Origin: Candidatus Poribacteria bacterium
GTDB lineage: Bacteria > Poribacteria > WGA-4E > WGA-3G
Assembly: GCA_028820635.1 (NCBI GenBank)
Contig: JAPPIG010000064.1
Span: 131,074 to 195,073, forward strand
Direction of reading: 5' to 3'
DNA: 64,000 nucleotides
The notes below the pieces were generated by a model. The model searched no databases. It saw nothing but the letters and a program-made list of their open reading frames with translations, and was not told where the DNA came from. The position numbers and the translations under genes were made by a program. Positions 6,411-35,460 of this stretch are shown here, one piece after another. Every line of letters starts with the position of its first letter. Position 1 is the first letter of the stretch.

Positions 6411-6469
6411 GATTTTGTCCCGTCATTGATATTTTATAGTGGATTTTACAATTAACTTTACATCTGAAC

Positions 6470-6570
6470 TGTAGGAGGGAACTCCGATTCCCGACTATCA
6501 GTGAGGTGCGTCGCGATTCGGAGATCGCTCCCGCTGAATGCCAAAAGCGCATTCAGCGTTGATTCACAGA
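6470..6570. repeat. REP-like palindromic repeat element (GTAGGAG..GTCGCGATTCGGAGATCGCTCC plus GAATGC-caaaa-GCGCATTC palindrome)
   Basis: Same family as the elements at 19040-19230, 23295-23330, 32178-32250, 35736-35768 and 46339-46410. Confidence 0.6.
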
Positions 6571-6716
6571 AGATATGTGAATTTATTTACATAATTTACT
6601 ATAAAAGACAAACAAATAACTATCAATTGTAAGTATGTTGCAGGACTTTAGCAAGTTCTGCAACAACCAATTGACACATCACCTCAATCCAACCGCTCAA
6701 CTAAAGGAATCCCCGA

Positions 6717-7943
6717 TTGAAAATCATATACTTTGACTGTTTCTCTGGTATTAGTGGTGATATGGTTCTCGGTGCTGTTGTTGATGCAGGAGTTGATCCA
6801 GATGTCCTGTCAAACGAACTCGCGAAACTAAAATTAGAAACCGAATTCAATCTCCATTTCCAGAAAGCAACAAAACACGGTATCACCGGAACGCAAGCAG
6901 TAGTTGAGACTCCTGAAAATTCACACGGAGGACATCACCATAAACATGACCACGGTCCCAGTAGACACCTATCTGAGATTTTTGATCTGCTTGATACAAG
7001 TGACCTCAAAACGAGCATCCGTGATACTGCTAAACAGATATTTGACAGACTTGCTGAAGCCGAAGCGAAAGTACACGACACTGACAAAGCCAAAGTACAT
7101 TTACACGAGGTCAGTGGGATTGACTCTATCGTGGACATCGTTGGTGCTGTCATCGGTTTCGAACAACTCGGTGCTGAAGAGATTTACGCTTCGCCTCTCT
7201 CACTTGGTCGCGGTTTTGTTAAATGTGCCCACGGTATGATGCCTGTACCTGTGCCGGGCACGATGGAACTTTTACACGGAGTTCCAATCCGTCAAACCGA
7301 AATTCCCAAAGAATTAGTTACGCCTACGGGTGCTGCCATCATCACCACACTTGCCAAAGATTTTGGCGTTATGCCCAATATGAGCATCAATCAAATTGGA
7401 TACGGTGCTGGCACCAGAGACCTTGATATGCAGCCAAATCTCCTTCGCATCTGTATCGGTGAAAAATCTCCTTCAAACAACATTAAACATAGACACGACC
7501 CTGCCCTCGGTTTTAGTGACAGCATAGAAATCATTGAAACGAATGTAGATGACATGTCCCCAGAAATTTCCGGCTATGTGATGGACAAGCTTTTGGAACA
7601 CGGTGCTTTAGATGTATTCTTCGTCCCTATTCTTATGAAGAAAGGCAGAGCTGCCATAAAGATAAATGTCCTTTGTTCATCCAGCACAAGAGACCTATTG
7701 ATAAAAACACTTCTAACAGAAACAACAACCTTCGGTGTTCGATTCTACACTGCTGACCGTGTTATCCTTAATCGTGATTATGTGGAAATCAATACCGAAT
7801 GGGGTCCCGTTCGCGCTAAACGCGGTTACTTAAACGGTGATCTAATCAAAACAATTCCAGAGTATGAGGATTGTAAATCTCTTGCCGAACAAAACAGTAT
7901 TTCTCTCCAATCTGTCTTTCAAGAGGCACTTCGTAAGATTTAA
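6717..7943 (+). CDS. larC: LarC family nickel-pincer cofactor biosynthesis / nickel insertion protein (DUF111)
   Basis: N-terminus (M)KIIYFDCFSGISGDMVLGAVVDAGVD is the LarC hallmark. His-rich HGGHHHKHDH segment. TTG start. Confidence 0.75.
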   Translation: MKIIYFDCFSGISGDMVLGAVVDAGVDPDVLSNELAKLKLETEFNLHFQKATKHGITGTQAVVETPENSHGGHHHKHDHGPSRHLSEIFDLLDTSDLKTSIRDTAKQIFDRLAEAEAKVHDTDKAKVHLHEVSGIDSIVDIVGAVIGFEQLGAEEIYASPLSLGRGFVKCAHGMMPVPVPGTMELLHGVPIRQTEIPKELVTPTGAAIITTLAKDFGVMPNMSINQIGYGAGTRDLDMQPNLLRICIGEKSPSNNIKHRHDPALGFSDSIEIIETNVDDMSPEISGYVMDKLLEHGALDVFFVPILMKKGRAAIKINVLCSSSTRDLLIKTLLTETTTFGVRFYTADRVILNRDYVEINTEWGPVRAKRGYLNGDLIKTIPEYEDCKSLAEQNSISLQSVFQEALRKI

Positions 7944-8007
7944 ACCCATGCAGGCGAGTCAATATAATCCGTCCGTGAATAGAGGAAAATAAAGTCCACG
8001 CAAAAGG

Positions 8008-9792
8008 TTACATCATAGCATTTGTGGCGCAGTTATCGCATTTCTCACACCGATAATCCTCTGACACCTCCTCTCCGAAATAATCACGGATAAATTTCAT
8101 TCTACACTCATCAGCCGCCGCATAGCGAACCATTCTGTCAATTCTGCTTCGTTTATATTTTACATAGTCTCCCAATCCCATCTGTTCTTCAGAGAGAGAT
8201 GACAAAAGTTCACTATCCTTTAGCAATTCAATCAGCATTAGGTCATCTTTACCCCAATACAGAAGGTGTCCCTCACTTTGAAGTTCTGCAAGCTGCTCCA
8301 TAACCGACTTTGGACTCAGTTCAAGGTCTTGACAAAAGCTTAAAATATCTGTTACTCGCCGTTGACGCAGATGTGTATAAAGTTCAGACTGGACAGGTGA
8401 ATCGTCTGTAGGTCTTGTCCTCAAGCGGATAGAGATTTGAGACGGAACGTTATGCCATCTCTTAAGAAAACCAAGTTTTTCCAGATAGGCAAGCCCAACT
8501 TGTATTTTTGCTGTCTTATAGCCAACCTCTAACTCCAATTCATCCATCGCTGCTAAACGATATTGCCCTGTTCCTTTATAGTTTTCAAGTGTTCGTAGCA
8601 GTTTTAAGAGTGAAGTTCTGTCGGGTGCACTCTCCTTGATGAACCATTCGTGTAACTCGCGGTCTTCATGAAAAGAAAATAAAAGACAATCTGAATCTTT
8701 TTCATCTCTGCCAGCGCGTCCAATTTCTTGACAGTATTCCTCCAAGGTGCCGGTCATTGTCCAATGAATGATAAACCGAATATTCGCTTTATCAATACCC
8801 ATTCCAAAAGCATTCGTAGCAACAACAATGTCTAATCCATTTCCGCTGTCATCAAAAAACGCTTCTTGTATCTGTTTGCGTTCGTGCAGTTCACGCCCCG
8901 CATGATAATAATCAACTCGGTATCCTCGCTCTTTGAGAAACTCGGCAATTTCTTCTGTGTCATTTCTCCGCCCAGCATAGATAATACCATTCCCTTCAAG
9001 TGAACTTATACTTTTTTCCAGCAGCGATTTTTTCTCTTCTTCGTCTTCGCTTTTGTAAACAGCAAGCCTCAGGTTAGGTCGTTCAATCCCCTGCACAAGC
9101 ACCCGTGGTTCTGGGATCTTCAGAATTTCCAGAATATCTTCTCGGATGTCTGGCGGTGCAGTTGCTGTGAACAAGGCGATTGCCCGCGGATAAAGCGTGT
9201 CAATAGCGTCACAGATTGAAAGATAAGCAGGACGAAAATCGTGCCCCCACTGTGAAATACAGTGCGCCTCATCAATGACGAATAGAGAGATAAGCACAGA
9301 ATTAAGAATATCTAAAAACCTACGGCTGCGTAGGCGTTCAGGAGAAATATATAGCAGTTTTATTTTGTTTTGTTTTAATCTATTTATTTCAAGGCGATAC
9401 TCTTCCCAACTGAGTGTGCTATTTATAAGCGATACAGACTTTATTCCCCGCGCCTTTAGCGCATCTACTTGGTCTTTCATTAACGATATGAGAGGTGAAA
9501 CAACAACTGTTGTTCCCGGTAACATTAATGCAGGTAACTGATAACACAAAGATTTTCCGTGTCCAGTTGGGAATACTGCAAAAACATTCTCCTCATTCAA
9601 AATCGCATCAATAATATCCCGTTGCCCATGCCGAAAAGCATCGTATTGAAAATATTGATGCAATGCTTTTAAAAGTTTGTCATCTTGTTCTGCTGGCTGT
9701 GCTAAAGGCGGTTGTGTATGCAAATCATCAGATGAATTGAGCAGATCATCAACCTCTTTTAATAAATTCTGCAAATTTCCCATAGGCTTCAA
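8008..9792 (-). CDS. recQ: ATP-dependent DNA helicase RecQ
   Basis: FRHGQRDIIDAIL, PTGHGKSLCYQLPAL, DEAHCISQWGHDFRPAY, a C-terminal zinc-binding CxxC cluster and a winged-helix region. Confidence 0.9.
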   Translation of the reverse strand: MKPMGNLQNLLKEVDDLLNSSDDLHTQPPLAQPAEQDDKLLKALHQYFQYDAFRHGQRDIIDAILNEENVFAVFPTGHGKSLCYQLPALMLPGTTVVVSPLISLMKDQVDALKARGIKSVSLINSTLSWEEYRLEINRLKQNKIKLLYISPERLRSRRFLDILNSVLISLFVIDEAHCISQWGHDFRPAYLSICDAIDTLYPRAIALFTATAPPDIREDILEILKIPEPRVLVQGIERPNLRLAVYKSEDEEEKKSLLEKSISSLEGNGIIYAGRRNDTEEIAEFLKERGYRVDYYHAGRELHERKQIQEAFFDDSGNGLDIVVATNAFGMGIDKANIRFIIHWTMTGTLEEYCQEIGRAGRDEKDSDCLLFSFHEDRELHEWFIKESAPDRTSLLKLLRTLENYKGTGQYRLAAMDELELEVGYKTAKIQVGLAYLEKLGFLKRWHNVPSQISIRLRTRPTDDSPVQSELYTHLRQRRVTDILSFCQDLELSPKSVMEQLAELQSEGHLLYWGKDDLMLIELLKDSELLSSLSEEQMGLGDYVKYKRSRIDRMVRYAAADECRMKFIRDYFGEEVSEDYRCEKCDNCATNAMM

Positions 9793-22101: not shown

Positions 22102-23250
22102 ATGCAAAAAAACGGAAAATACGGTGTCCTACTCCTCGGTGGACATCGCACACATCAAGAAAATTATGCACAATCGTTTGCCAACGATCGCCGTTGTCAA
22201 CTTGTTGCATTTGCTGATGAACCAGATGCACCTGAAGAACGAATAAAATTGGCACGTTCCCTCGCTGAAGAATTAAATCTCCCTTTCATTCCCGACCTTG
22301 ATGAGGCATTGGCGCGCGATGATGTGCATATTGTAAGTCTCTGCACAGAGGTTGAAAGACGTGGTCGTGTTGGAACGAAATGTGCAGAAGCAGGAAAGCA
22401 CGTCTACCTTGACAAGCCAATGGCACTCAATCCTGAAGATACGAACAAGATTGTTGACGCTGTTACCAAAAGCGGTGTTCGGACACAGATGTTTAGTAAC
22501 ATTTATAGCACTTGGGCGCGAACTGTCAAACAAGGATTGGACAGTGGACACATCGGTAAACTAAAGGCAATTCATTGCGATGTCATGTTTGCTAAAGGAC
22601 ACCCGGGAACTGCACCTGTCGGGAAAAAACGGATACAAAAACCGAATTTAGAACGGTATAGTTTCGTGGAAGCAAAACCTGAAATGTTTGACATCGGTGT
22701 TTATGCCGTGTCAATGGTGAATTGGTTAACACAGAAACGCGTGAAAAATGTATTTGGTGGAACAGCAAATTACTTTTTTAAAGAACATCACGGCTGCGAT
22801 TTAGAAGATTTTGGCGCGTTGGTGCTAACATTAGAAGGCGATGTTACCGCAACGATTGCTGCTGGACGTTACGGTTGGCAGAGTCATGCGCAAGGAGGTA
22901 TACGAAAGGTTCACCTTGTTGGCACTGATGCTACGTTAACTTTTGATGCTTCATCAAACAGGTTAGAAGTGTTCACTGCAGAGCCTACATTTGAACCACC
23001 GACACCGCACCCGCTTGACCCGATGGGAATGTGGAGCAGCACACAAGCAGAAATTAAGATGCAACCGAAGCAGCACTGGATTGATGTCGGCAGTGGAAAT
23101 GATGGACAGAACGAATTCGGTGCATTTATAGATTGTATTGAAAATGGAGTGGAAAGTGAGATGAACGCAGAATTTGCTGCACATTCTGTTGAAGTTATTT
23201 GTGCTGGCTATCGTTCTGCCGCAAGTGGAGAGGTTATTAAATTTGGATGA
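22102..23250 (+). CDS. Gfo/Idh/MocA family oxidoreductase
   Basis: N-terminal Rossmann GVLLLGGHRTH...AFAD...E(K)P. Confidence 0.8.
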   Translation: MQKNGKYGVLLLGGHRTHQENYAQSFANDRRCQLVAFADEPDAPEERIKLARSLAEELNLPFIPDLDEALARDDVHIVSLCTEVERRGRVGTKCAEAGKHVYLDKPMALNPEDTNKIVDAVTKSGVRTQMFSNIYSTWARTVKQGLDSGHIGKLKAIHCDVMFAKGHPGTAPVGKKRIQKPNLERYSFVEAKPEMFDIGVYAVSMVNWLTQKRVKNVFGGTANYFFKEHHGCDLEDFGALVLTLEGDVTATIAAGRYGWQSHAQGGIRKVHLVGTDATLTFDASSNRLEVFTAEPTFEPPTPHPLDPMGMWSSTQAEIKMQPKQHWIDVGSGNDGQNEFGAFIDCIENGVESEMNAEFAAHSVEVICAGYRSAASGEVIKFG

Positions 23251-23574
23251 TATAAATTTGTTCTAATAGTCTGTCCAATCTAAACTTTACAGTTTTACAG
23301 TCGCGATCGGGAGGTCCTTCCTACAAAAAGGCTTGTACAGCATAGGTTCAGAACGCTCTCTGAATAATTGTTATCTACACAATTTAAGAATGAATTAGTT
23401 CATTGTAGGGTGATTCATCGTCCGTCGTAATGCGAGATGAATCAATCATCCCCAAACAAACCATAAGTTTAGACTGGACAACCGAGTTACTCTCACTCCG
23501 CGTTGGCACGAAATTTGCGAATGGCTGTAGTAGTTAGAAAGTCGATAAATAAAACCGGAAAAGGAGATAAATCA

Positions 23575-23841
23575 ATGAGCAAATCGAAAATTGACCAGAG
23601 CCATACTCGGCAAAAGAACCGGATTGATTCCTCTCATACTCGGCAAAAGAACCAGATTGATGCTTCTCATACTCGGCAAAAAGAGGGAATTAAAACCGCT
23701 GATACTGCAAGACAGCGTAATGATATCCGTAAAGCTGAAGAGAGACAGCGTAATGATATCCGTAAAGCTGAAGAGAGAGAGCGGAACGATGCCCGTAAAG
23801 CTGGGGAGAGAGAGCGGAACGATGCCCGTAAAACCGGTTGA
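23575..23841 (+). CDS. small highly basic tandem-repeat protein
   Basis: AGGAG RBS. SHTRQKNxID x3, then RNDIRKAEER x2 and RNDARKAGER x2. Encoded by 33-bp DNA tandem repeats. Confidence 0.5.
   Translation: MSKSKIDQSHTRQKNRIDSSHTRQKNQIDASHTRQKEGIKTADTARQRNDIRKAEERQRNDIRKAEERERNDARKAGERERNDARKTG
23592..23830 (+). repeat. 33-bp tandem repeats (two sub-families) inside the small basic protein gene
   Basis: CGGCAAAAGAACCGGATTGATTCCTCTCATACT x3; CGTAATGATATCCGTAAAGCTGAAGAGAGACAG x2; CGGAACGATGCCCGTAAAGCTGGGGAGAGAGAG x2. Confidence 0.7.
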
Positions 23842-24163: not shown

Positions 24164-25972
24164 TTATCCGACAATACCCATCGCTTCAAGTTCGGCAATC
24201 TGTTTCAGCCATGATTCACGAATTTCAGGGGAGTAATCACCCGGGAGTAAGGATTTGCGGGTACAATTCAAGAACGCTTGCAAGGTTTGATAACGCCGAA
24301 TTGGACCGATATTTGGTAGAATTCTATCGGATATAACGTCAACGATTTCGTCTACAGACAACTCTCCTTCGCGGTTTTTGGCAGCTTGAAGGTCAGCACG
24401 GAGTGATGCAAAACTGGCAGCCGAATACCCTTCAGTCAGCGACAGCAGGAGTTTAAATGCCTCATCCGGAATTTCGCCTCTGAAAATATTGCTAAGCGTC
24501 CAGTGTAGAAATGTCTCTCGGTCTTCACCTGTTGGATCGAGAACTGGAATTACGATGTCTCCAACTCTGCCTTCTCTGCGCAGGTCGGGCGAGAGATTAT
24601 AGATACGCGCTGTCATAAGCAGCCATGTGATATTGCCGCGTAACTGCGGGTCGGACATCATAGCCTGTATTTTTCCTGTAAGCCTGCGCTCAGTTGCGTG
24701 TGCATCTCTACCAACATCCCCGAACTGTGTATCCGCTTCGTCAACAAAAATTAACACATTCACCAATGCCATCAACAAACGTCTGAGCCGTTCAAAGATC
24801 ACATCTGTCTGTCCAAACCACATGCTGCGGATATTCTTGAGTACTAATACAGGTATATCCAATTCTCCTGCGAGTCCTTCAAAGATAAAGGTTTTTCCGC
24901 TACCGATGGGTCCGCATACACTCAATCCAGCGATGGAATCTTTTCCTGTAGATGTAATGCGAGGAATTATCTGTGTCTTCAAGAAGTCAACCAGTTTTTG
25001 ATTGCCGACAATATCTTTGAGAGAATGTGCAGGTTTTTTGAATTCGACGACATCTTCCCCCAACTGTGCTTGGATAAATTCAGATACTTTTTCTATTACG
25101 TTGTCTGGACGCAGTTTTTCTCCTGAATAACAAGCTGAGACAAGCAGCTGGCGTAAAGCTTGGATTGATAATCCCGCTGTTAACACGGCGAGTTGTGATT
25201 GGCTACCCCATAGATTTAACTCCTTTTTTGCAGGTTTTTGGGTTCTATTGAACCATGATATAAAATGTCTTCGTGCTTCTACTTGGGGAGATTGAATTTC
25301 TACATCTATGACTTGGGGCAAGCGGGTAACGCGTGAGTTTATTAGGCTTTTTGATTCGGCAATGAAAACAACCGTATCGGTAGCTTTCATGAAATCGGAA
25401 TCAGAAATCCAATCCTGCACGATGCTAACTCTATGTCTATCTGCTAAACTTAAACTTCGGATTTCTCCTTCAGGGAGTAACATATCCGTTGCTTCAATAA
25501 AAATAAGGAGTTTTTCCTGCAAAAACTTTTCTCCGCGAACATTCGTAGATCGCGAAATAAGACAGAATTGTCGCAGCAGTTCAAGTGCCAATGTCGGGCT
25601 TCCGATAGCATCGTTTAGGTATTGTTCAAACAAGTCGTTAGACGCATTTGAGGATTTACTTGTTTTGAGTTCAGGGTCTTCCGCCTTGTTCGGAAGCGCG
25701 AAAAGACTGGTAGTGTTTTTCTGTGAAGGTTCGCTCTCCCCCCGCCATAGGTTGAAAGCGTTTTTTACCTTTTCTCGGTCGCTTGCATGCAGAAAACGGA
25801 GCGGACCATTGAGTTCGTATACTATGAGGATAAAACCCGAAATATCCCAGCTTCGCGTAAGAAACGGAACGAGGGGAATGTAATCCTCCTCATCTGATTC
25901 TTCAACGAAAAAGAGGTCGTGGATATTCCCATGAAGGACGATACTGCGCGAGGTGCCAGAATTAATAAGCAA
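24164..25972 (-). CDS. classical-clade AAA ATPase with ~330-aa uncharacterised N-terminal region
   Basis: Walker A GPIGSGKT; Walker B LIFVDEAD; sensor-1/SRH TARIYNLSPDLRREGRVGD (matches TNRPDxLDPALLRPGRFD of the FtsH/Vps4/katanin clade). A single AAA module sits at the C-terminus. Confidence 0.85.
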   Translation of the reverse strand: MLINSGTSRSIVLHGNIHDLFFVEESDEEDYIPLVPFLTRSWDISGFILIVYELNGPLRFLHASDREKVKNAFNLWRGESEPSQKNTTSLFALPNKAEDPELKTSKSSNASNDLFEQYLNDAIGSPTLALELLRQFCLISRSTNVRGEKFLQEKLLIFIEATDMLLPEGEIRSLSLADRHRVSIVQDWISDSDFMKATDTVVFIAESKSLINSRVTRLPQVIDVEIQSPQVEARRHFISWFNRTQKPAKKELNLWGSQSQLAVLTAGLSIQALRQLLVSACYSGEKLRPDNVIEKVSEFIQAQLGEDVVEFKKPAHSLKDIVGNQKLVDFLKTQIIPRITSTGKDSIAGLSVCGPIGSGKTFIFEGLAGELDIPVLVLKNIRSMWFGQTDVIFERLRRLLMALVNVLIFVDEADTQFGDVGRDAHATERRLTGKIQAMMSDPQLRGNITWLLMTARIYNLSPDLRREGRVGDIVIPVLDPTGEDRETFLHWTLSNIFRGEIPDEAFKLLLSLTEGYSAASFASLRADLQAAKNREGELSVDEIVDVISDRILPNIGPIRRYQTLQAFLNCTRKSLLPGDYSPEIRESWLKQIAELEAMGIVG

Positions 25973-26059: not shown

Positions 26060-27883
26060 TTAACTTGCCTGTGCCAACTTTTTCCATCGTGGAAGAAAAC
26101 CTTCAGTCAAGAACTGGTCAAGGTTCCAGATATTCCTTTGCGGTTCTACTTCAAAAAATGTTCCCATTGCCAAAACAAGAATGTCTTTAAAACCATAATT
26201 TGTCTCAATTTGTGAGAGTGTTTCATAAGTTTGGAGAAATGCGGTGTGAATTCGGAGAAAGTTTAGCGCAGCAAAACTAAACGCATTGAGCTTCAGGCAA
26301 TCATCATTTGTTTTCTCCCAAAACCATTCCGGTTTGTAAAAAAGGTCGAGTCGTTCTTTGCAAAGCTGCACCGCTTTTTCAAGGACATCATCTAATTCTT
26401 GGCGATTCATCTCTTTATCTGGAATATCAAGTTTTTCACAAACCTCAGCATGTATTCGGTGTTTTGCTTCATCAGAATCCACCCACGTTTGAAACGCTTC
26501 AGAGGCTCGTTCGAAACAATTGCGAAGATCTGCAATTGTCAAATCAAGTTTGCTCGGAAAAGCCTTAAGTAGAGAAGAACTCGGCAAAAGATCTGCTTGC
26601 TCAGGATGTAGTTGTAAGAATTTATATTCTACGACATCTGCTAACATCTCTGCCAGAATAGGTGTAAAAGCGATGATAGATCGCTCATAAAGCTCAGCAT
26701 CAATGAATTCCGTCAGTTTTTCCGCATCAAGCTGAATTTCCCCGGTTTTCGTTTTAACAAATGCTTCGGCAAATGTAGTCTGTTCACCTAAAACTGAGGC
26801 AGATTCTGTTAAAGATAATGGTCGATTAAAGAGTGATAATTCGGTATACAGGTCCTCAAAGTCAAGCAAACTCTCTTGCCACTGGTGTCCCCATGTATCA
26901 TGAATCAGATATTTATCAAGTTCTTCCAATGGGAGAACACCAACCATTCGTGTGAGCGTAGTCGTAACCAATTCAACAGACAGTGCAGTATCTTTGGCAA
27001 TTTGTTCTCGGAACTTTAAATCTAAATTTTCTGCATTAAAAGTGCCAAAAACAGGAAAATGTGCAAACGGTTCAACCTGCCAAATTTTTCGCAAAAATTG
27101 CGCATAACTAAATTTCTTACCAGATTGTTTTTTACGGTATCTATCTGTTGCCGTGGGTATTTTTTCACTGTGTGTATTGGCAGGAGTTTCCTTTATTTTA
27201 GAAGGCAGACAGAAATAGAGAGCAGAACAGGTTTTTATCAATCGGACTTCGCCAACTTCAAAGGGCGCGTCCGGATATAAACACTGAAAGAGGTTGAGAA
27301 TGTCAGTATCCAGTTGTGGATTATCGGACACTAAATTAAAGCGATTCTGTAAACACTGCATGATTTGATGTCGGTGCATCAGAGGGGCAGTTCGAATAGC
27401 GAGGTTTCTCGTTAGTTTGTCTAATGCTTTTGAATCTACATGGAATATATCTTGGAGCAGTGCCTTCATGTCTTGCTGTTCTGATTCTTCTGTAGGGGCA
27501 TCTGCTGTAAATTGCGTAAAAATTTTAGAGCCTGCAGTGTCGAGGTTTTCAATATTGGGATGGTTGACAATTGCGGGATACTGGTCAAGGGATAACCAAA
27601 TTGCTTCGATAAAAATATTATCCAAAACACTGAATGACGTATTTATTGAATCGTTTTGTTTAGATGAATGGGATATTTTGTCTGTTTCCAATACTAACGT
27701 ATTATGCAGATCAAAAAACTTTTCAAGCGTTTCAGTTGAAACTGGACCACTCTTTTTGGTATTGTTAATTTTATTTACGTGGGTTTCAAAATCCTTTAAA
27801 CCTTCCAAGATAATTTCCCAATTGCTCGGCGTATTATCCTGATGCCACGTGTTGACGTTCACAACCCCCTCCTCTCTTTCCAC
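26060..27883 (-). CDS. hypothetical 607-aa protein, no recognisable domain, directly upstream and co-oriented with the AAA ATPase
   Basis: Long uninterrupted ORF; 87-bp gap to the AAA gene. No motifs I can assign. Confidence 0.6.
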   Translation of the reverse strand: MEREEGVVNVNTWHQDNTPSNWEIILEGLKDFETHVNKINNTKKSGPVSTETLEKFFDLHNTLVLETDKISHSSKQNDSINTSFSVLDNIFIEAIWLSLDQYPAIVNHPNIENLDTAGSKIFTQFTADAPTEESEQQDMKALLQDIFHVDSKALDKLTRNLAIRTAPLMHRHQIMQCLQNRFNLVSDNPQLDTDILNLFQCLYPDAPFEVGEVRLIKTCSALYFCLPSKIKETPANTHSEKIPTATDRYRKKQSGKKFSYAQFLRKIWQVEPFAHFPVFGTFNAENLDLKFREQIAKDTALSVELVTTTLTRMVGVLPLEELDKYLIHDTWGHQWQESLLDFEDLYTELSLFNRPLSLTESASVLGEQTTFAEAFVKTKTGEIQLDAEKLTEFIDAELYERSIIAFTPILAEMLADVVEYKFLQLHPEQADLLPSSSLLKAFPSKLDLTIADLRNCFERASEAFQTWVDSDEAKHRIHAEVCEKLDIPDKEMNRQELDDVLEKAVQLCKERLDLFYKPEWFWEKTNDDCLKLNAFSFAALNFLRIHTAFLQTYETLSQIETNYGFKDILVLAMGTFFEVEPQRNIWNLDQFLTEGFLPRWKKLAQAS

Positions 27884-28073: not shown

Positions 28074-28910
28074 TTATAACGGTAGTTCAGAATCACTCTC
28101 TTTCTTTTCTTCGGGCTCATCGGTTTTCTCAGGGGTATCTGTTTGTTGTGCTCCGAAGATTAAGGAATCAAATTCATCAGAAGCAGCGCTGGAACTTGCA
28201 GCGGCAAGAAATTCTTCCTCTTCAGAACGTGAATCAGTGCCAGCGAGTTCTTGTGCAACCGCCGATCTACCCTTTGCTTTCTCACGGATTTCTCGCATCC
28301 GTGTCAATTCCGCTGAAGTGCCATCCGTACTAATACCTGATAGCAAATCCGCGACATCTTCTTGCTCACGTGCTGTAATAAGATCGGCAACCGCTTCAGA
28401 TTGCTCAGTTTTGATCTTATCAAGATCGCGGTGGAGACCGGTAATCTGAAGTTTATGGGTTTCAATGTCTTCCTGCGCGCGTTCAATATCCTGCTCAAGT
28501 TCATCAATGCGCGCGTTTTTCTCATCCAGAGTGGAGTGAAAATCGTTATAAGAGGTAACACATCGGACGTAGTCAGGATGCTGTTTTATCTCCTCATCTG
28601 GTGTGCCAGCTTTTTGAAGGTCAGCGGCAGTGCTTTTTGCCTTAGCGATTGCACCTGCCTTCATCTTTTCAAGTTTGTCAATGTCATCTGTCAGAGCCTT
28701 CAGTGAATTCTTCTTATTTTCAACAAGTGCGATGAGTTGCCCAATCGCATTCTTGTAACGTTGGATATTTCCCTGTTTGTCACGGATAATGTCCTCATAA
28801 GCACCGCGAACCGCTTCAGGGTTTTCCATTAGTTTATCAGCCTGCTCGTGTGCACGACCAGTAAGTGTATACCAAATTGCTTTGAAAAAACGGGTGAAGC
28901 CGTTTGCCAT
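28074..28910 (-). CDS. PspA/IM30 (Vipp1/LiaH) family protein, copy 1
   Basis: N-terminus MANGFTRFFKAIWYTLTGRAHEQADKLMENPEAVRGAYEDIIRDKQG fits the PspA helix a0/a1. Coiled-coil throughout; acidic E/S-rich C-terminal tail. Confidence 0.75.
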   Translation of the reverse strand: MANGFTRFFKAIWYTLTGRAHEQADKLMENPEAVRGAYEDIIRDKQGNIQRYKNAIGQLIALVENKKNSLKALTDDIDKLEKMKAGAIAKAKSTAADLQKAGTPDEEIKQHPDYVRCVTSYNDFHSTLDEKNARIDELEQDIERAQEDIETHKLQITGLHRDLDKIKTEQSEAVADLITAREQEDVADLLSGISTDGTSAELTRMREIREKAKGRSAVAQELAGTDSRSEEEEFLAAASSSAASDEFDSLIFGAQQTDTPEKTDEPEEKKESDSELPL

Positions 28911-28959: not shown

Positions 28960-29649
28960 TTAAGTATCATCCTCTCTGATACCTGATAACAGATCATCAA
29001 CCTCTTGTTGTGTGCGTGCGGCAATAAGATCGGCAACCGCTTCAGATTGCTCCGTCTTAACCTTCTCCAGATCACGATGGAGACTGGTTATCTGAAGTTT
29101 ATGGGTTTCAATGTCTTGTTGCGCGCGTTCAATATCTTGCTCAAGTTTAGCGATGCGGGCGTTTTTCTGCTCCAAAGTGGAGTGGAAATCGTTGTAAGAT
29201 GCAACACATCGGACATAACTTGGGTGCTGTTCAATCTCCTCGTCAGAAGTTCCTTCTTTTTTAAGTTCAGTGATAATACCTTCCTTCTTCTCGATTGCAT
29301 CAGCCTTCATCTTTTCAAGTTTGTCAATATCATCTGTCAAACTCTTCAGCGAATTTTTCTTATTTTCAACAAGTGCGATGAGTTGCCCAATCGCATTCTT
29401 GTAACGTTGGATATTTCCCTGCTTGTCACGAATGATGTCTTCATAAGCACCACGTACCGCTTCAGGGCTTTCAATGAGGCTATCGGTCTGTTTATCGTAT
29501 TGGATATTTTCTTGCGTGTCACTTATATCGTCTTCAGAAGGCTCGTATATCGGTTCAGAGCTTTCCTTGAGTCTATCTGCTTGTTCAAGTGCACGACCAA
29601 TTTGCGTATACCAGACAGCCTTGTATAAACGGATGAAGCCATTTTCCAT
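28960..29649 (-). CDS. PspA/IM30 family protein, copy 2
   Basis: Near-identical core to copy 1 (ESPEAVRGAYEDIIRDKQGNIQRYKNAIGQLIALVENKKNSLK), with a ~30-aa insertion near the N-terminus. Confidence 0.75.
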   Translation of the reverse strand: MENGFIRLYKAVWYTQIGRALEQADRLKESSEPIYEPSEDDISDTQENIQYDKQTDSLIESPEAVRGAYEDIIRDKQGNIQRYKNAIGQLIALVENKKNSLKSLTDDIDKLEKMKADAIEKKEGIITELKKEGTSDEEIEQHPSYVRCVASYNDFHSTLEQKNARIAKLEQDIERAQQDIETHKLQITSLHRDLEKVKTEQSEAVADLIAARTQQEVDDLLSGIREDDT

Positions 29650-29733: not shown

Positions 29734-30309
29734 TTATCCATTATGAGTAGATGAAAATGCTGACTTCAGTTTTGGCATAAAATGCGTAAAAAATTTGACT
29801 GCTTGTTCATCTTGATGGTTAGGTGAAAATTTGTGTCTTCCCATACATCTTCTTGTATATGAGAGCGAAAGATATCCACAAGTTTGTGAACCAATTGCCA
29901 TCATACCACCAATCGCAACAAGTCCAAAACCGTATATGCCCGAAATAGCAATAACTCCCCAAGCTTGTGTGCCACCGATAGCAATAACTCCCCATGAAAT
30001 TCCACCTCCGATGGCAATTACCCCAATTGACATTAAACCACCGATAGCAATAAAACCGCAAGCAAGCCCACCACCAATAGCAATAGCTCCATTTGCGAAA
30101 AGTCCCGCAATGACAATCTCTCCAGTAGAAACAAAGTCTGAAACCATGTCTGGCGAGGCAATTGAAGATTCAAACAATCGCACCATCTTATCCAGATTTA
30201 ATGCGAGAATAAAACACAGTGAAACGGCCCAAAAAATACCCCACTTCCAATAATAAGATCGAAATGCTTTTTTGAATTTTTCAGGTACAAAAGCTTCAGT
30301 CATTTTCAC
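29734..30309 (-). CDS. membrane protein with six tandem 11-aa GxIAIGG (glycine-zipper-like) repeats
   Basis: TM helix followed by GAIAIGGGLAC-GFIAIGGLMSI-GVIAIGGGISW-GVIAIGGTQAW-GVIAISGIYGF-GLVAIGGMMAIG. Underlying DNA has 33-bp periodicity. Sits between pspA copies. Confidence 0.6.
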   Translation of the reverse strand: MKMTEAFVPEKFKKAFRSYYWKWGIFWAVSLCFILALNLDKMVRLFESSIASPDMVSDFVSTGEIVIAGLFANGAIAIGGGLACGFIAIGGLMSIGVIAIGGGISWGVIAIGGTQAWGVIAISGIYGFGLVAIGGMMAIGSQTCGYLSLSYTRRCMGRHKFSPNHQDEQAVKFFTHFMPKLKSAFSSTHNG

Positions 30310-30469
30310 ATTCTTCAGATTTTTGAGTTAGTGCCAAGTATAATTATTGCAAGCAATAGATTATTGGAGTTGTCTTCTTTTTGTAGACACTGTTTTCGAG
30401 TAATGTTATAGATTGATTAGGAGTACGAATTCTTGCTGCAACTACTTCTATTTTTTGTCTCCATCCATA

Positions 30470-31085
30470 TTTGATTCTTCATTAACATCTTCAGTCTCTT
30501 TCTGCCGAATTTCTTCTTGTATCTTTGTCAATTCCATTGAAATATCATTCTTACTAATACCTGATACCGTATCACTGATTTCCTTTGTTCACGTGCAGCG
30601 ATCATATCAGCAACCGCGTCAGATTACTGTGTCTTGAGCTTATCCAATTCACGATGGAGAGTGGTTATCTGAAGTTTATGGGTTTCAATGTCTTCTTGCG
30701 CGCGTTCAATATCCTGTTCAAGTTTAGCTACACGAGCATTTTTCTCTTCCAATGTGGTGTGGTAATCATTATAAGAAGTAATATGTCGGACATAGTCTGG
30801 ATGCTGTTTGATTTCCTCAGCTGATGCACCTGAATCTCGTAGTTCAGCGGCTGTGTTTTTCGACTTTGTGATGGCACCTGCCTTCATCTTTTCAAGTTTG
30901 TCAATGTCATCTGTGAGACCCTTCAGAGAATTTTTCTTGTTTTCTATAAGCGCGATCGACTGCCCGATCACATTTTTGTAACGTTGGATATCTTCCCGTT
31001 TAACGCGGATTTTGAAATAACGAGCAATACTGTTTGCCATTGGAAAATCTCCTGAGAGTGAGATAAAATTTGCTACAATTAACAA
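30470..31085 (-). pseudogene. decaying third PspA/IM30 paralog
   Basis: The N-terminus lacks the conserved EQADKL...AVRGAYEDII block. In-frame CAA>TAA nonsense at ~30624, followed by a frameshifted C-terminal tail that is still DNA-homologous to copies 1 and 2. Confidence 0.55.
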
Positions 31086-31086
31086 G

Positions 31087-31932
31087 TTATTGAAGTTTAC
31101 CTTCTTCTGTAGGTTCTACTTTCGGGTGTGTCGTTATAGCATGGGTGTCTTCTAATGAATTGCTCGTTTGCCCTATCTCTTTATCAATATTTGGGGTAAA
31201 TTCTCTTATCTGTTCATCAACTTTCTTCGCAAAAGCAAGGCTTTCGTCAAGTTCCGTGCGAAGTCGTGAGAGTTCAGTCTCATTACTTTCAGGACTAAGC
31301 GTCAGCACACGAGCATAAAGATGTGAAAGTTGAACAATTGTTTGTTGAACATCTGCTATTTGTTGTTCTCTATGTTCCTTTAGAACTCTTTTAACAGTTG
31401 CCAATTGAGAATCTCTTGATTTCTCGTGCATCTTCAACGTGTCTTTCAAACACTGAACAGCTTGTGTAAAGAGTTCGGTCACTTTACCAGTAATTTCTGC
31501 ACTTACCGTAATAGGGAGGGTCGCCATCCAACCAGCGTCTCGCGCTTCCTCCTGAAAAGATTGATGCAAGGCGCGAAGTTCCTCCAGCATCTGCTCTGTT
31601 CTTTTGTCGCCATCCTTTTTTAACTGTTCATGCAACGCGTTCAGTTCTTGTTCCTGTTTCTGTTGTGCTTCATAGAGTATTTCTTCATGAACGCGTTTTG
31701 CGATGTCGTCCGTGCCGGTTGTCCACTTTGTAATCAGCGCACCAATAGGAAGACCGATACCGATAACCGCGCTTGCGAATAAGTAAAGAATCTTTGGTTC
31801 TAAATTAAACACCCATGACGCGAAAACGCCAAGCGCACCCGCCGCAAATGGATAAATGACGTAAGGGTTACTAATGAGATGGAGTAAGAATTTCTCTCGA
31901 AACAATTTCCTATCAATCAACGTTTTCCCCAA
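31087..31932 (-). CDS. two-TM membrane-anchored coiled-coil protein, first gene of the pspA cluster
   Basis: Hydrophobic segments at ~res 20-43 and 48-68, then a long heptad-rich coiled coil (EEILYEAQQKQEQELNALHEQLKK...). Only a 1-nt gap to the pspA3 remnant. Confidence 0.6.
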   Translation of the reverse strand: MGKTLIDRKLFREKFLLHLISNPYVIYPFAAGALGVFASWVFNLEPKILYLFASAVIGIGLPIGALITKWTTGTDDIAKRVHEEILYEAQQKQEQELNALHEQLKKDGDKRTEQMLEELRALHQSFQEEARDAGWMATLPITVSAEITGKVTELFTQAVQCLKDTLKMHEKSRDSQLATVKRVLKEHREQQIADVQQTIVQLSHLYARVLTLSPESNETELSRLRTELDESLAFAKKVDEQIREFTPNIDKEIGQTSNSLEDTHAITTHPKVEPTEEGKLQ

Positions 31933-32409: not shown

Positions 32410-33960
32410 TTGGTGGCATTTGATACTATTATCGTTGGGGGAAACATCGTTGATGGCACAGGTAAACGTGAACCTTATGTCGCAGATATTGGTATTCAAG
32501 GTGATAGAATCACAGAAATCGGAGACCTTGAAAAGGCAGAAACGTCAAACCGTATATCAGCAGATGGATTAGTTGTATGCCCTGGCTTCGTTGATGTCCA
32601 CGTGCATTCTGAAATCTCTCTGCTCGGCGGGCGAGATCAGTTTGCTGCAGTTATGCAGGGGGTAACCACCCACTTAGCCGCACCAGACGGTTTTGGATGG
32701 GCACCTTTGCCCTCAAAACTTGCACAAGAACTATGGCACTACACGCAATTTGCGTATGGTGATGACAAAGTTCCGCTCAATTGGCAAACACCAGACGAAT
32801 ATCTCAGTATGTTCAATGGGCAAATCCCTGCAAACCTCTATCCACAAGTACCACACTGCGCTGTTCGGCTTGGTGCAATGGGGTGGGACGCACGTCCTGC
32901 TACCACAGATGAACTGAAAAAAATGGAGCAAACTACACGCGATTGGCTTGAGGCTGGCGCATGTTGTCTCTGTTTAGGTTTGGATTATCAACCCTCTGCG
33001 AATGCTGATTTAAACGAGTTAGTCTATCTTTCAAAGGTAGCAGCAAGTTATGACACGATCTACGCTGCACATATCCGTTACCAACTGATTGGGAGAAAAC
33101 CTGCTTGGGAAGAAACCATTGAGATTGCGCAACAGGCAGAGATTCCAGTTCATATTTCACATGAACGAGTTGACGATGAATCGGCGGAAGTGCTTGAGCG
33201 AGTTGAACGTGAAAACATAGATTTGACCTTTGAATCTTACCTCTATCCCGCTGGGATGACTCACCTTGCCATGATGCTTCCGATGGAATATCAGACAGGT
33301 ACACCCGATGAAATGTTAGCAAATCTGGAAAACCCTGATGTTAGAGAAAAATCACTCCCATATCTGAAAGAAAAGTTAGGGGAAGGCAACCAAATTGTAG
33401 GCTACAATAAGTCTGGAAGATTTATTGGCATGCTACTCTCTGATGCTGCAAAGCATGAAGATAAATCTAATGAAGAATTCGCTTATGATTTCATCCAAGA
33501 AGAATTGGCAATTGAGACCTTTGTAATGCCGTGGGTAACACCCCTCGAAGAAAATGAACGGATTTTGAACCGCACTGCAAGTCATCCACGCATGATGATT
33601 GCCAGCGATGGTGTTTACAATATTCCACATCCGCACCCACGAAGTTATGGGTGTTTCGTGCAGTATCTCGGCAAATTTGTACGTGAAAGACAGTTAGTCT
33701 CATTGAAAGAAGCGATTTATAAGATGAGCGGTTTTCCTGCAGAACGATTCCGACTTTCAGATCGTGGGAAAATTGCGTGTGGACTCGCTGCGGATATTGT
33801 TATTTTCAACCCTGATACCGTAGCAGATCGCTCCACATGGTTTGATCCGGTGCAGCCCCCTGTCGGTGTAGATTGGGTATTCGTCAACGGAACTCCCGTA
33901 ATTGAAGATGGCAACGTAACAGGAAAGCTGCCAGGAAAAGTCTTACGCCATCATAAATAG
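32410..33960 (+). CDS. N-acyl-D-amino-acid deacylase (D-aminoacylase) family amidohydrolase
   Basis: DTIIVGGNIVDGTG...ADIGIQGDRI...PGFVDVHVHSE. Metal-binding HxH motif and the overall D-aminoacylase pattern. Confidence 0.75.
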   Translation: MVAFDTIIVGGNIVDGTGKREPYVADIGIQGDRITEIGDLEKAETSNRISADGLVVCPGFVDVHVHSEISLLGGRDQFAAVMQGVTTHLAAPDGFGWAPLPSKLAQELWHYTQFAYGDDKVPLNWQTPDEYLSMFNGQIPANLYPQVPHCAVRLGAMGWDARPATTDELKKMEQTTRDWLEAGACCLCLGLDYQPSANADLNELVYLSKVAASYDTIYAAHIRYQLIGRKPAWEETIEIAQQAEIPVHISHERVDDESAEVLERVERENIDLTFESYLYPAGMTHLAMMLPMEYQTGTPDEMLANLENPDVREKSLPYLKEKLGEGNQIVGYNKSGRFIGMLLSDAAKHEDKSNEEFAYDFIQEELAIETFVMPWVTPLEENERILNRTASHPRMMIASDGVYNIPHPHPRSYGCFVQYLGKFVRERQLVSLKEAIYKMSGFPAERFRLSDRGKIACGLAADIVIFNPDTVADRSTWFDPVQPPVGVDWVFVNGTPVIEDGNVTGKLPGKVLRHHK

Positions 33961-33969
33961 AAGTGAAAC

Positions 33970-35460
33970 ATGAATGAAAAAACTACGGATATTTATGATT
34001 TAACTATCATCGGCGGCGGAAGTGCTGGACTTGTGCTTGCTGTGGCGGGGGCAAAACTTGGTAAAAAGACTGCGCTTGTGGAGAAACATCGCATCGGTGG
34101 TGATTGCCTCTGGACAGGATGTGTGCCTTCAAAAGCATTGCTCAAAGCTGCAAAGGTTGCAAATTATATCCGAAACGCAGAGAAATATGGGATTACTACG
34201 ACTGAAACCAAACCTCAATGGCAGAAAGTTATAGAATATGTGCGCAGCACGCAACATATGATTGAACAGGAACACGATAATCCTGAACGGTTCCGCGAGA
34301 TGGGGGTTGATGTCATCTTCGGAGATGGGCATTTTGAATCACGCGATACCTTTGTTGTGGAAGACAGTGAAAACGAGCAAACCAGAACGATCAAAAGCAA
34401 AAAGTATGTTATTAGCACGGGTTCTCGTCCTCTTGCGCCGCCTATACCCGGATTAGAATCTTGCGATTATCTTGACAGTGAAAATGTGTGGGAATTGGAA
34501 GAATTGCCTCAACGGCTGCTTGTTATCGGGGCAGGTCCAATCGGCATTGAATTGGGACAGGCATTTCATCGGCTTGGTGCAGAAGTAACAATAGCGCAGC
34601 GGAGCGGCCGTATTCTAACAAAAGAGGAGGTTGATGTTTCTGAGAAGATGTTAAATTATCTTATTTCAGATGGCATTGATATTCGACTTAATACGAACAT
34701 AACGAAGATTGAAAAACATAAGAATGGTTTTAGTGTGATATTATCGGGGTTACAAACCCCTCCAACATCTGAATTAGAGTTTCAGTCCTCCGCAAACCAA
34801 AATAATCAGGAACAGGTTTACGATAAGATTTTGATTGCCGCAGGACGCGCCCCAAATGTCGAAGGTTTGGAACTTGAAAAAATTGGAGTGAAAGTTAAAA
34901 AAAAGGGAATCGTCGTTAATGGACAACTTCAGACACATGTGAAAAACATATATGCTGCAGGTGACGTAATCGGACACTATCTTTTTACACATGTGGCAGC
35001 ATTTCAAGCGCAATTGCTTGTTAGGAACTTTCTCTTACCTTTCTCCAAAAAGATAAACTACTCTGTTGTACCTTGGACAACGTTCTGTGATCCAGAGGTC
35101 GCTCGATGTGGATTGACAGAAGCGGAAGCCCGTGAGAAATATGGTGATGTTGATGTGTTCACACTGGATCAAGCAGATGTTGACAGGGCAGTTGCAGATG
35201 GGGAAACACACGGATTTAGCAAAATCATTGCAAGTAAATGGCGCGGAAAGATATTAGGGGTACACCTTGTCGGTGTCAATGCAGGGGAGGTTATCCATGA
35301 GTATGTTTTGGCTATGCAGGAAGGGATTCCATTACGGAAGTTGAGTGGAATGATTCATGTGTATCCGACTTATTCAACCAGTGTGTGGCGTGTGGCTGCG
35401 AAATGGCTTTCGGAAGGCACGTTGGTTCAAATATTGCGGAAATTGATTGGGTCCGGGTAA
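33970..35460 (+). CDS. FAD-dependent pyridine nucleotide-disulfide oxidoreductase (dihydrolipoamide dehydrogenase / mercuric reductase class)
   Basis: YDLTIIGGGSAG FAD fold; redox-active GGDCLWTGCVPSK disulfide; second Rossmann LLVIGAGPIGIELG; C-terminal dimerisation domain. Confidence 0.8.
   Translation: MNEKTTDIYDLTIIGGGSAGLVLAVAGAKLGKKTALVEKHRIGGDCLWTGCVPSKALLKAAKVANYIRNAEKYGITTTETKPQWQKVIEYVRSTQHMIEQEHDNPERFREMGVDVIFGDGHFESRDTFVVEDSENEQTRTIKSKKYVISTGSRPLAPPIPGLESCDYLDSENVWELEELPQRLLVIGAGPIGIELGQAFHRLGAEVTIAQRSGRILTKEEVDVSEKMLNYLISDGIDIRLNTNITKIEKHKNGFSVILSGLQTPPTSELEFQSSANQNNQEQVYDKILIAAGRAPNVEGLELEKIGVKVKKKGIVVNGQLQTHVKNIYAAGDVIGHYLFTHVAAFQAQLLVRNFLLPFSKKINYSVVPWTTFCDPEVARCGLTEAEAREKYGDVDVFTLDQADVDRAVADGETHGFSKIIASKWRGKILGVHLVGVNAGEVIHEYVLAMQEGIPLRKLSGMIHVYPTYSTSVWRVAAKWLSEGTLVQILRKLIGSG

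Follow-up and report, generated by a model that had tools for sequence, protein, structure and literature searches.

A glycine-rich repeat membrane protein encoded in a PspA and AAA ATPase operon of Poribacteria

The repeat gene, its product and its family

The window analysed here is a stretch of 64,000 nucleotides from a Candidatus Poribacteria bacterium (contig JAPPIG010000064.1), and its minus strand carries an operon in which a gene for a small repeat-containing membrane protein stands among PspA-like genes that are followed by an AAA ATPase gene. The repeat gene corresponds to an open reading frame (ORF) at 29734..30309 (-), which in a mechanical call reaches a GTG at 30309 and would then encode 191 residues. 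The ATG at 30303, two codons inside this ORF, is the start in all database gene calls and gives a coding sequence at 29734..30303 (-) of 189 residues, with the stop codon at 29734-29736. A 100% identical protein of 189 residues (P0001) was found as a "hypothetical protein" from a Candidatus Poribacteria metagenome-assembled genome. The gene lies on the minus strand, is real and is under selection: the sense ORF was intact in 9 of 9 loci examined, and its product had 99 homologues, many of them full-length at 30-48% identity and with conserved non-repeat ends.

The motif G-x-[IV]-A-I-[GS]-G occurred six times in the protein, at residues 72, 83, 94, 105, 116 and 127 (29893..30090), with a spacing of exactly 11, and none of 100000 shuffles of the protein yielded two or more matches. 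The six tandem 11-residue repeats described in an earlier reading made from the DNA letters (hereafter, the sequence-only reading) are thus borne out. These canonical units (residues 72-137, 29893..30090 (-)) are flanked by degenerate ones within a repeat zone of residues 61-144. The repeats account for ~ 44% of the length, so the description of the protein as almost entirely repetitive does not hold; an N-terminal motif and a basic tail of 45 residues, both conserved, stand beside them. A 33-bp tandem repeat in the DNA, also described there, was detected by Tandem Repeats Finder at 29972..30090 (3.6 copies, 68% matches), but it is weak, with a mean identity among the six units of 62%, and of 45% at third codon positions. 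Such low values indicate that the repeat is old and was maintained as protein, rather than being a recent DNA expansion. Variation in repeat number among strains, proposed as a check, was absent from the near relatives (P0001-P0004, 83-100% identical, all of 189 residues), whereas more distant Poribacteria differed by whole units.

The conserved basic N-terminal motif, F.PEKFKKAF.SYYWKW (residues 1-21, 30241..30303 (-)), is predicted to be cytoplasmic from the alignment and charge counts. The transmembrane helix TM1 follows (residues 22-37, 30193..30240 (-)), with an AlphaFold2 (AF2) helix over residues 7-35 and a Kyte-Doolittle value of 1.5 over residues 19-37, in agreement with the single N-terminal helix that had been proposed; the repeat zone further on is strongly hydrophobic and uncharged. 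The next segment, a loop of residues 38-60 (30124..30192 (-)), is acidic and poorly conserved (13-26% identity), was modelled with a predicted local distance difference test score (pLDDT) of 51-58, and is predicted by its charge to lie outside. The Gly/Ile/Ala repeat module (residues 61-144, 29872..30123 (-)) has one charged residue in 84 and consists of 29% Gly, 20% Ile and 14% Ala; its 11-residue units read G-φ-φ-A-φ-G / G-x-x-A-x. Kyte-Doolittle values within the repeats rose to 2.08; simple Hessa-scale sums were positive, from +0.5 to +6, in every 19-residue window. The basic C-terminal tail (residues 145-189, 29737..29871 (-)), recognised by alignment, AF2 and charge, bears the signature ..FSP.HQDEQAVKFFTHFMPKLKSAF and two short helices.

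Three alignments were used, of 36 homologues (A1), of 63 (A2) and of Poribacteria sequences only (A3). Among the 36 homologues, 48 of 2870 repeat-zone residues were charged. The K+R and D+E counts in the same set were 131 vs 69 in the N-terminal flank, 44 vs 81 in the loop after TM1 and 259 vs 105 in the tail. By the positive-inside rule, this +/-/+ pattern places the N-terminus inside, the loop outside and the tail inside, and the module should carry the chain back across the membrane. The basis of this topology is charge bias together with hydropathy.

A profile search over 1.84 billion representatives, with clusters at 50% identity, returned 2633 clusters at E ≤ 1e-3, 535 at E ≤ 1e-10 and 70 at E ≤ 1e-30, and many of the 535 spanned profile positions 21-198. 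In A1 and A2 we observed four colinear parts: the basic N-motif (F.PE.FKKAF..Y), the transmembrane helix, the variable acidic loop, and a module of ~ 75-90 residues with the basic tail behind it, whose family-wide signature is G.Y.LS...G+Y.FS..RQD..AV.FF...P.L+.AF. All conserved modules by which the family is defined (N-motif, transmembrane helix, Gly-rich 10/11-mer module and QD..AV.FF tail) are present and colinear in the Poribacteria protein studied here. Named sources of the family included Poribacteria, Gemmataceae, Phycisphaerae, Acetothermia and Dehalococcoidia. Against Pfam-A (hmmscan, E ≤ 1) the protein matched only DUF6249, at E 0.23, and there was no match in NCBIfam. The 63 relatives gave stray single matches to Pfam, among them one to Rv2743c (E 2.2e-3) and one to Pentapeptide_2 (E 4.9e-5). 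A sequence-profile search of the PDB found no solved relative, the weak matches being a phage tail fibre and c/K-subunit helices of V-type ATPases (E 1.9-6). A tblastn search of plasmids with a relative fused to SHOCT returned one "hypothetical protein", from Allochromatium.

The module is also found in other architectures. In P0211, P0212 and P0230 a Ser/Thr kinase is followed by the module and then by HEAT repeats or another C-terminal domain, without TM1; in the kinase P0230 the module is the sole hydrophobic segment of 594 residues. Zinc ribbon-module and SHOCT-module fusions (P0059, P0222, P0036, P0050) likewise have no N-terminal transmembrane helix, and P0154 retains it and adds HEAT repeats at the C-terminus. 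In the members without TM1, the module starts in the cytoplasm after the kinase, zinc ribbon or SHOCT domain, a basic segment follows GxPLxHI, and the basic tail is the same. Six of these versions (P0211, P0212, P0230, P0059, P0036 and P0222) open with a conserved F-G-W-P-L-x-H-I-A-x-G, after which comes the basic segment. Module length was alike in the classes with and without TM1 (median 82.5 vs 79 residues).

The operon and a possible role for the repeat protein

The first gene of the operon encodes a 281-residue protein of no assigned family (31087..31932 (-)), with two hydrophobic segments (~ residues 24-44 and 48-68, read from the sequence) and a long helical or coiled-coil region of ~ 200 residues; it is 77-96% identical in other Poribacteria. 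A degenerate PspA-like paralogue at 30451..31040 (-) (mechanical ORF 30624..31085, 153 residues) separates it from the repeat gene. Downstream of the latter, on the same strand and with intergenic gaps of 49-190 nt, lie two PspA/IM30-like genes, a gene for a conserved 607-residue protein and, as the last gene, the AAA ATPase. The core PspA/IM30-like protein (278 residues, 28074..28910 (-)) is the best-conserved PspA copy, 79-96% identical in other Poribacteria, and passed the gathering score of PF04012 (34.3 bits vs 33.9), which makes it a member of the PspA/IM30 family. The 229-residue paralogue that precedes it (28960..29649 (-)) is 68% identical to the core copy, lacks its C-terminal part and has a short N-terminal insertion; alone, it scored below the PF04012 cut-off, at 15.5 bits. 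A profile of 12 PspA paralogues had its best PDB matches in Vipp1/PspA (E 1.2e-3 to 2e-2), colinear over profile positions 72-225. The 602-residue ATPase (24164..25972 (-)) has a classical AAA domain at residues 352-472 and its best PDB matches are CDC48/VAT/p97 (E 4e-18). Homologues of the 607-residue protein (26060..27883 (-)) start at its residue 8 and are 54-93% identical between the PspA and AAA genes; searches of Pfam, NCBIfam, PADLOC and PDB sequences gave no match, and its gene is missing from operons L007, L017, L020 and L021 (L numbers denote the loci compared).

The gene order was common to 7 of 7 GTDB species representatives of Poribacteria that carry the repeat gene, and to further metagenome loci: an optional 281-residue gene, up to two PspA-like genes, the repeat gene, one to four more of the PspA-like genes, a gene (also optional) for a protein of ~ 600 residues and the AAA ATPase. 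In these sponge-associated Poribacteria the repeat gene always lies inside the operon, never at its edge, with PspA-like genes directly downstream. The placement next to PspA genes is therefore conserved across the Poribacteria loci that have the repeat gene. The more specific claim of the sequence-only reading, that the gene sits between pspA genes, holds in so far as PspA-like genes occur on both sides, but the upstream copy in the window is damaged. Relative to its 231-residue orthologue in L001, this copy has lost ~ 31 internal codons close to the N-terminus, and a frameshift near 30583 puts residues 1-183 and 185-229 in different frames; the copy may be a pseudogene, or the damage may stem from an error in the assembly. 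L001 has a further 252-residue PspA paralogue that is absent from the window. Each operon has 1-5 PspA-like paralogues (L001, L004, L007, L015, L022, L023), and the extra copies, of 175-252 residues, are mostly shorter than the core copy, with its C-terminal region missing in part or entirely.

The surroundings are shared as well. The operon flanks at 32410..35460 (+) and 22102..23250 (+) in the window recur in L001, L005 and L007, with an amidohydrolase and a pyridine-nucleotide disulfide oxidoreductase on one side and, where the locus is long enough (L001, L007), a GFO/IDH/MocA oxidoreductase on the other. Common flanks indicate that operon versions of differing content occupy one orthologous locus. 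An ORF of 112 residues at 23503..23841 (+), between the AAA ATPase gene and the gene beyond it, consists of short charged repeats, reading SHTRQKN.ID three times and then RNDIRKAEER / RNDARK; a repeat in the intergenic DNA may have produced it by chance. We also considered an anti-phage defence system and rejected it, because the operon proteins failed the PADLOC models: the repeat protein and the 607-residue protein had no match, and the others gave coiled-coil or P-loop noise (E at least 2.6e-5, ~ 20 bits or fewer).

From this synteny we tentatively propose, as the best-supported reading but one that falls short of being probable, that the repeat protein is a small inner-membrane accessory partner of a Poribacteria-specific operon for membrane maintenance or remodelling, built from PspA (bacterial ESCRT-III-like) and an AAA ATPase. 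The N-motif and the tail would face the cytoplasm, as the positive-inside rule predicts, with the module in or across the bilayer. Through flat, apolar surfaces of small residues the module may self-associate into a membrane-embedded patch or oligomer, most likely as stacked strand-turn units resembling a β-solenoid and less likely as Gly-rich helices. The cytoplasmic N-motif and tail could then dock or nucleate PspA-like polymers, which the AAA ATPase would remodel or disassemble. Such a role would be analogous to that of LiaI for LiaH, PspB/C for PspA, and PspM for mycobacterial PspA.

Comparison of divergent repeat-protein types within Poribacteria bears on the docking step. Identity between types was 92% in the core of the tail (residues 159-183) and 57% in the N-motif, vs 25% in TM1, 13-21% in the loop and 34% in the repeats. 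The constrained parts are those predicted to be cytoplasmic, as a docking function would predict; conservation of the tail by gene conversion may be an alternative. A MIM-like motif in the tail, for the AAA ATPase, was considered and rejected, since the same tail is kept in members far from PspA/AAA genes.

Several observations weigh against the proposed partnership. The link to PspA comes from synteny, and within Poribacteria only. A Phycisphaerae member adjoins Rce1-like and M16 peptidase genes, with no PspA; an Acetothermia member is isolated; two unassigned contigs have no PspA nearby; and none of seven Dehalococcoidia loci had a tblastn match to the PspA of the window. Two Dehalococcoidia loci were scanned against Pfam, and the family member lay near SecD/F and a VTT/DedA-type gene in one and near a Fic gene in the other. 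The neighbourhood with the VTT/DedA-type membrane protein and SecD/F is a single case, from one Dehalococcoidia genome (member at 6158..6796 of L024); DedA proteins are also tied to membrane integrity. Conversely, on other contigs the PspA core (74-76% identical) is directly followed by the AAA ATPase, without a repeat gene, and the core machinery of PspA and AAA ATPase would appear from these loci to work without the repeat protein. Such minimal pairs (L035-L037 at 6001..8755, and L034) also lack the 281- and 607-residue genes, and in L035 the upstream neighbour encodes an 802-residue protein with multiple transmembrane segments on the opposite strand. PspA and AAA pairs without the repeat gene, together with family members away from PspA, suggest that the repeat protein is accessory and lineage-specific.

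The repeat protein also diverges far faster than its neighbours. Between L019 and the window, the 281-residue, PspA, 607-residue and AAA proteins are 93, 91, 89 and 93% identical, and the repeat protein 41%; between L017 and the window, the repeat protein is 91% identical and PspA 79%. The repeat-protein type does not track the operon backbone, which suggests cassette-like exchange or very fast mid-gene divergence. Moreover, no single fixed topology fits the members with and without TM1, as the parity of membrane crossings would have to differ at equal module length. Lastly, the other membrane protein of the operon, with its 281 residues, two hydrophobic segments and coiled coil, could be what actually anchors the PspA system in the membrane, or an ESCRT-III-like protein with transmembrane segments. 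The sequence-only reading had suggested a LiaI/PspB-like anchor or effector; this is reasonable as an analogy, but there is no homology, and the link to PspA holds in one lineage and is not obligatory.

It is also possible, though rather unlikely, that the repeat protein is a generic membrane or envelope protein without direct contact to PspA, either co-regulated with envelope-stress genes or a membrane-perturbing client buffered by the PspA system. Such a bystander would fit the occurrence of most family members outside PspA contexts, the fusions of the module to Ser/Thr kinases, HEAT repeats, zinc ribbons and SHOCT, the pairs lacking the repeat gene, and the fast divergence independent of the operon backbone. 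It fits less well with an interior operon position that persists among Poribacteria species even though their repeat proteins share only 38-51% identity, or with the near-constant tail of divergent Poribacteria types, which would suit a conserved local partner.

Fold, topology and coding strand of the repeat protein

Across 239 family members the motif spacing was chiefly 5 and 10 residues, and the 11-residue spacing is the Poribacteria-type variant. The repeat unit can be written (G-φ-φ-A-φ)(G-G-x-A-φ), and in the 11-mer one residue is gained in the Gly-rich half, as seen from single-column alignment gaps. A given linker position of the 11-mers held Asn in 53% of units, and the position after it held Ala/Ser in 87%. 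Gly makes up nearly half of each unit in relatives with a 10-residue period, such as P0030.

The AF2 model of the window protein, computed with A1, had a pLDDT of 78 and a predicted TM-score (pTM) of 0.69. Helices spanned residues 7-49, including the transmembrane helix (7-35), and each 11-mer formed a nine-residue strand and a two-residue turn over residues 58-138 (pLDDT 83-89 barring an irregular unit), with two short helices at the C-terminus. For P0030, modelled with A2, the pLDDT was 87 (92-97 in the repeats) and the pTM 0.76; DSSP assigned an uninterrupted run of strand to residues 75-122, followed by six-residue strands with four-residue turns. We read the uninterrupted run as parallel in-register stacking, i.e. 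a flattened β-solenoid with two repeats per coil. Foldseek searches of the PDB with both models gave nothing significant (best E 0.13 and 0.63, TM-score ≤ 0.2), and the weak neighbours were all β-helix proteins. The parallel-solenoid reading is an interpretation of the DSSP strand run and of the kind of these weak neighbours. Membership of the pentapeptide-repeat proteins was rejected, as the window protein had no such Pfam match and Foldseek returned no such structure.

We must also note that AF2 is known for over-predicting solenoids on repeat sequences, which weighs against the strand-turn assignment, and the solenoid itself may be an artefact of the modelling. Support for a strand-turn design that is independent of AF2 comes from the switch between periods of 10 and 11, the changes in repeat number by single units and the recurrent linker Asn. 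A one-residue indel in a linker would turn a helical face by ~ 100° and would be harmless in a strand-turn repeat, which counts against a helix. On balance, we give roughly one half of the weight to a strand-turn or solenoid module and about one third to Gly-rich helices.

The sequence-only reading had described faces of the glycine-zipper type, used for tight helix packing and oligomeric pores, and this is probably wrong. The strict GxxxGxxxG spacing is absent from the window protein (and occurs in 19 of 99 homologues), which has two GxxxG and three matches of the relaxed (G/A/S)xxxGxxxG type; its family has a period of 10 or 11 with a five-residue sub-period, so the glycine zipper was rejected as a class. 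The fuller helical alternative, an unlikely one that still has to be taken seriously, is that the repeats form Gly-rich transmembrane α-helices, three after TM1, whose small-residue faces pack into an oligomeric bundle, wedge or pore, and that the protein bends or permeabilises the membrane that PspA shapes or repairs. The helices would resemble those of the ATP-synthase c-ring and of the GxGxGxG protein Mic10. Such helices would account for an uncharged repeat zone above the Kyte-Doolittle threshold for transmembrane segments and for the return of the chain to the cytoplasm demanded by the charge bias; apart from the phage tail fibre, the weak PDB sequence matches were to V-type ATPase c/K-subunit helices only, and the solenoid bias of AF2 undercuts the chief evidence against helices. 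On the other side stand the scarcity of GxxxG spacing, the alternation of periods and single-unit changes, which break a fixed helical face and any helix register of 20-22 residues, the high Gly content of the module (about half per unit in relatives resembling P0030), the conserved linker Asn, the positive Hessa-scale sums in all 19-residue windows, and the strands predicted in two independent AF2 runs.

A more doubtful extension of the strand-turn reading is that the module is a lipid-embedded β-solenoid or β-meander in the inner membrane, with an apolar exterior and internal hydrogen bonds, reused by the kinase, zinc-ribbon and SHOCT proteins. In Poribacteria, it would be a platform that nucleates a multi-paralogue PspA polymer recycled by the CDC48-like AAA ATPase. 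If true, the module would have an architecture of a kind that is not known among cytoplasmic-membrane proteins of bacteria.

It is very unlikely that the module and the tail are extracytoplasmic, with TM1 anchoring a periplasmic, self-assembling β-solenoid (functional-amyloid-like or an envelope scaffold) and PspA acting on the cytoplasmic side in the same stress pathway. The N-in orientation, the single clear transmembrane helix and the β model from AF2 would agree with it, and apolar surfaces might favour stacking into fibres or sheets. However, the tail is strongly basic throughout the family, relatives lacking TM1 begin the module in the cytoplasm after their N-terminal domains, and the near absence of polar residues from the surface of the module would be out of the ordinary for a domain in the periplasm.

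That nothing is expressed here, or that the antisense ORF at 29831..30253, with its PIAI repeats, is the gene (the outcome that the sequence-only reading had named as fatal to it), can be set aside almost entirely: only the window and its 89%-identical relative (L001) keep the antisense frame open over 140-145 codons, and it drops to 78 codons in L004 and to 52 in L007, with the longest open frame shifting between loci, whereas the sense ORF is intact throughout, runs in the same direction as the operon and conserves its non-repeat termini across phyla. A codon-position substitution test between the window and L001 does not separate the strands, since both frames are open and their third positions coincide.

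Significance and relation to known systems

Bacterial PspA/Vipp1 proteins are now recognised as relatives of ESCRT-III, and what directs them to membranes and what recycles them are live questions. According to a 2025 review, a Vps4-like ATPase appears absent in bacteria (PMC7619361). In the operon described here, PspA is present as several paralogues, together with a classical AAA ATPase and with two membrane proteins unrelated to each other; it is thus a candidate system of compact size in which to study how a bacterial ESCRT-III-like polymer is assembled in a targeted way and turned over by means of ATP. The repeat family, with more than 2600 clusters at 50% identity, lies outside Pfam, NCBIfam and solved structures. 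Its hydrophobic 10/11-residue repeats represent a helical membrane domain of an unusual, Gly-rich kind or else a β structure embedded in lipid, a choice of general interest for membrane proteins, and the family is a useful test case for the solenoid bias of AlphaFold. The operon type with PspA and AAA genes is already in the literature; the repeat family is undescribed, and our literature searches on it found no description.

The closest functional analogues are the small inner-membrane proteins encoded beside PspA-family genes, i.e. LiaI of B. subtilis, PspB/PspC of E. coli and PspM/Rv2743c of M. tuberculosis, whose roles as membrane partners of PspA are summarised in passages of PMC7619361 and PMC11237479. 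Like these, the repeat protein has short cytoplasmic elements that, by analogy, could recruit PspA. Its build differs, with one transmembrane helix and a Gly-rich repeat module in place of 1-4 plain transmembrane helices. We take the PspB, PspC and LiaI-LiaF-TM families to be represented by Pfam models. Against these and the PspM model, the window protein had no match, and one of the 63 relatives matched (Rv2743c, the stray hit given above).

Toastrack (DUF2154/DUF4097/DUF2807; LiaF, PspC-fusion proteins, YvlB) is described in a section of PMC11237479 as a β-helical domain C-terminal to transmembrane segments that recurs near PspA, sometimes after SHOCT-like domains. The present family resembles it in having both transmembrane-module and SHOCT-module versions. 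Toastrack, however, is a polar intracellular β-helix (PDB 4QRK, 4OPW), whereas the module here is nearly charge-free and hydrophobic. We rejected Toastrack as an assignment, given that there was no Pfam match and no PDB profile match, and that it was absent from the Foldseek lists (E ≤ 10, two models).

With glycine zippers, c-rings and Mic10 the module shares a high content of Gly, Ala and Ile in a membrane-embedded, probably self-associating segment, as well as the weak PDB matches to V-ATPase K subunits; it differs in lacking GxxxGxxxG, in its predicted strands and in having no match to a Gly-zipper model of Pfam. With β-solenoid proteins (pentapeptide repeats, the left-handed β-helix, curli CsgA, HET-s) it shares a sub-period of five residues (each putative coil would hold two or four units), small turn residues, a recurrent Asn and weak Foldseek neighbours that are all β-helices. 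There was no significant structural match to these proteins, as the Foldseek values above show, and the outward-facing residues of the module would be apolar, unlike those of soluble solenoids.

At the level of the operon, the nearest comparison is with PspA operons that encode a protein with two AAA+ domains, the N-terminal copy inactive, as described by Ravi et al. 2024 (PMC11237479), and with archaeal and eukaryotic ESCRT-III/Vps4. What is shared is the combination of PspA/ESCRT-III-superfamily genes, 1-5 of them here, with an AAA ATPase of the classical clade, which follows them in the same operon, and the varying sets of PspA paralogues in the Poribacteria operons recall the ESCRT-III sets of several subunits in archaea and eukaryotes. 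The passages of PMC11237479 on these operons make no mention of a Gly-rich repeat membrane protein. The 602-residue ATPase has one detectable AAA domain after an N-terminal region of 340 residues, which would fit the description by Ravi et al. It is nearest to CDC48/VAT/p97, not to Vps4, and no MIT domain was detected in it.

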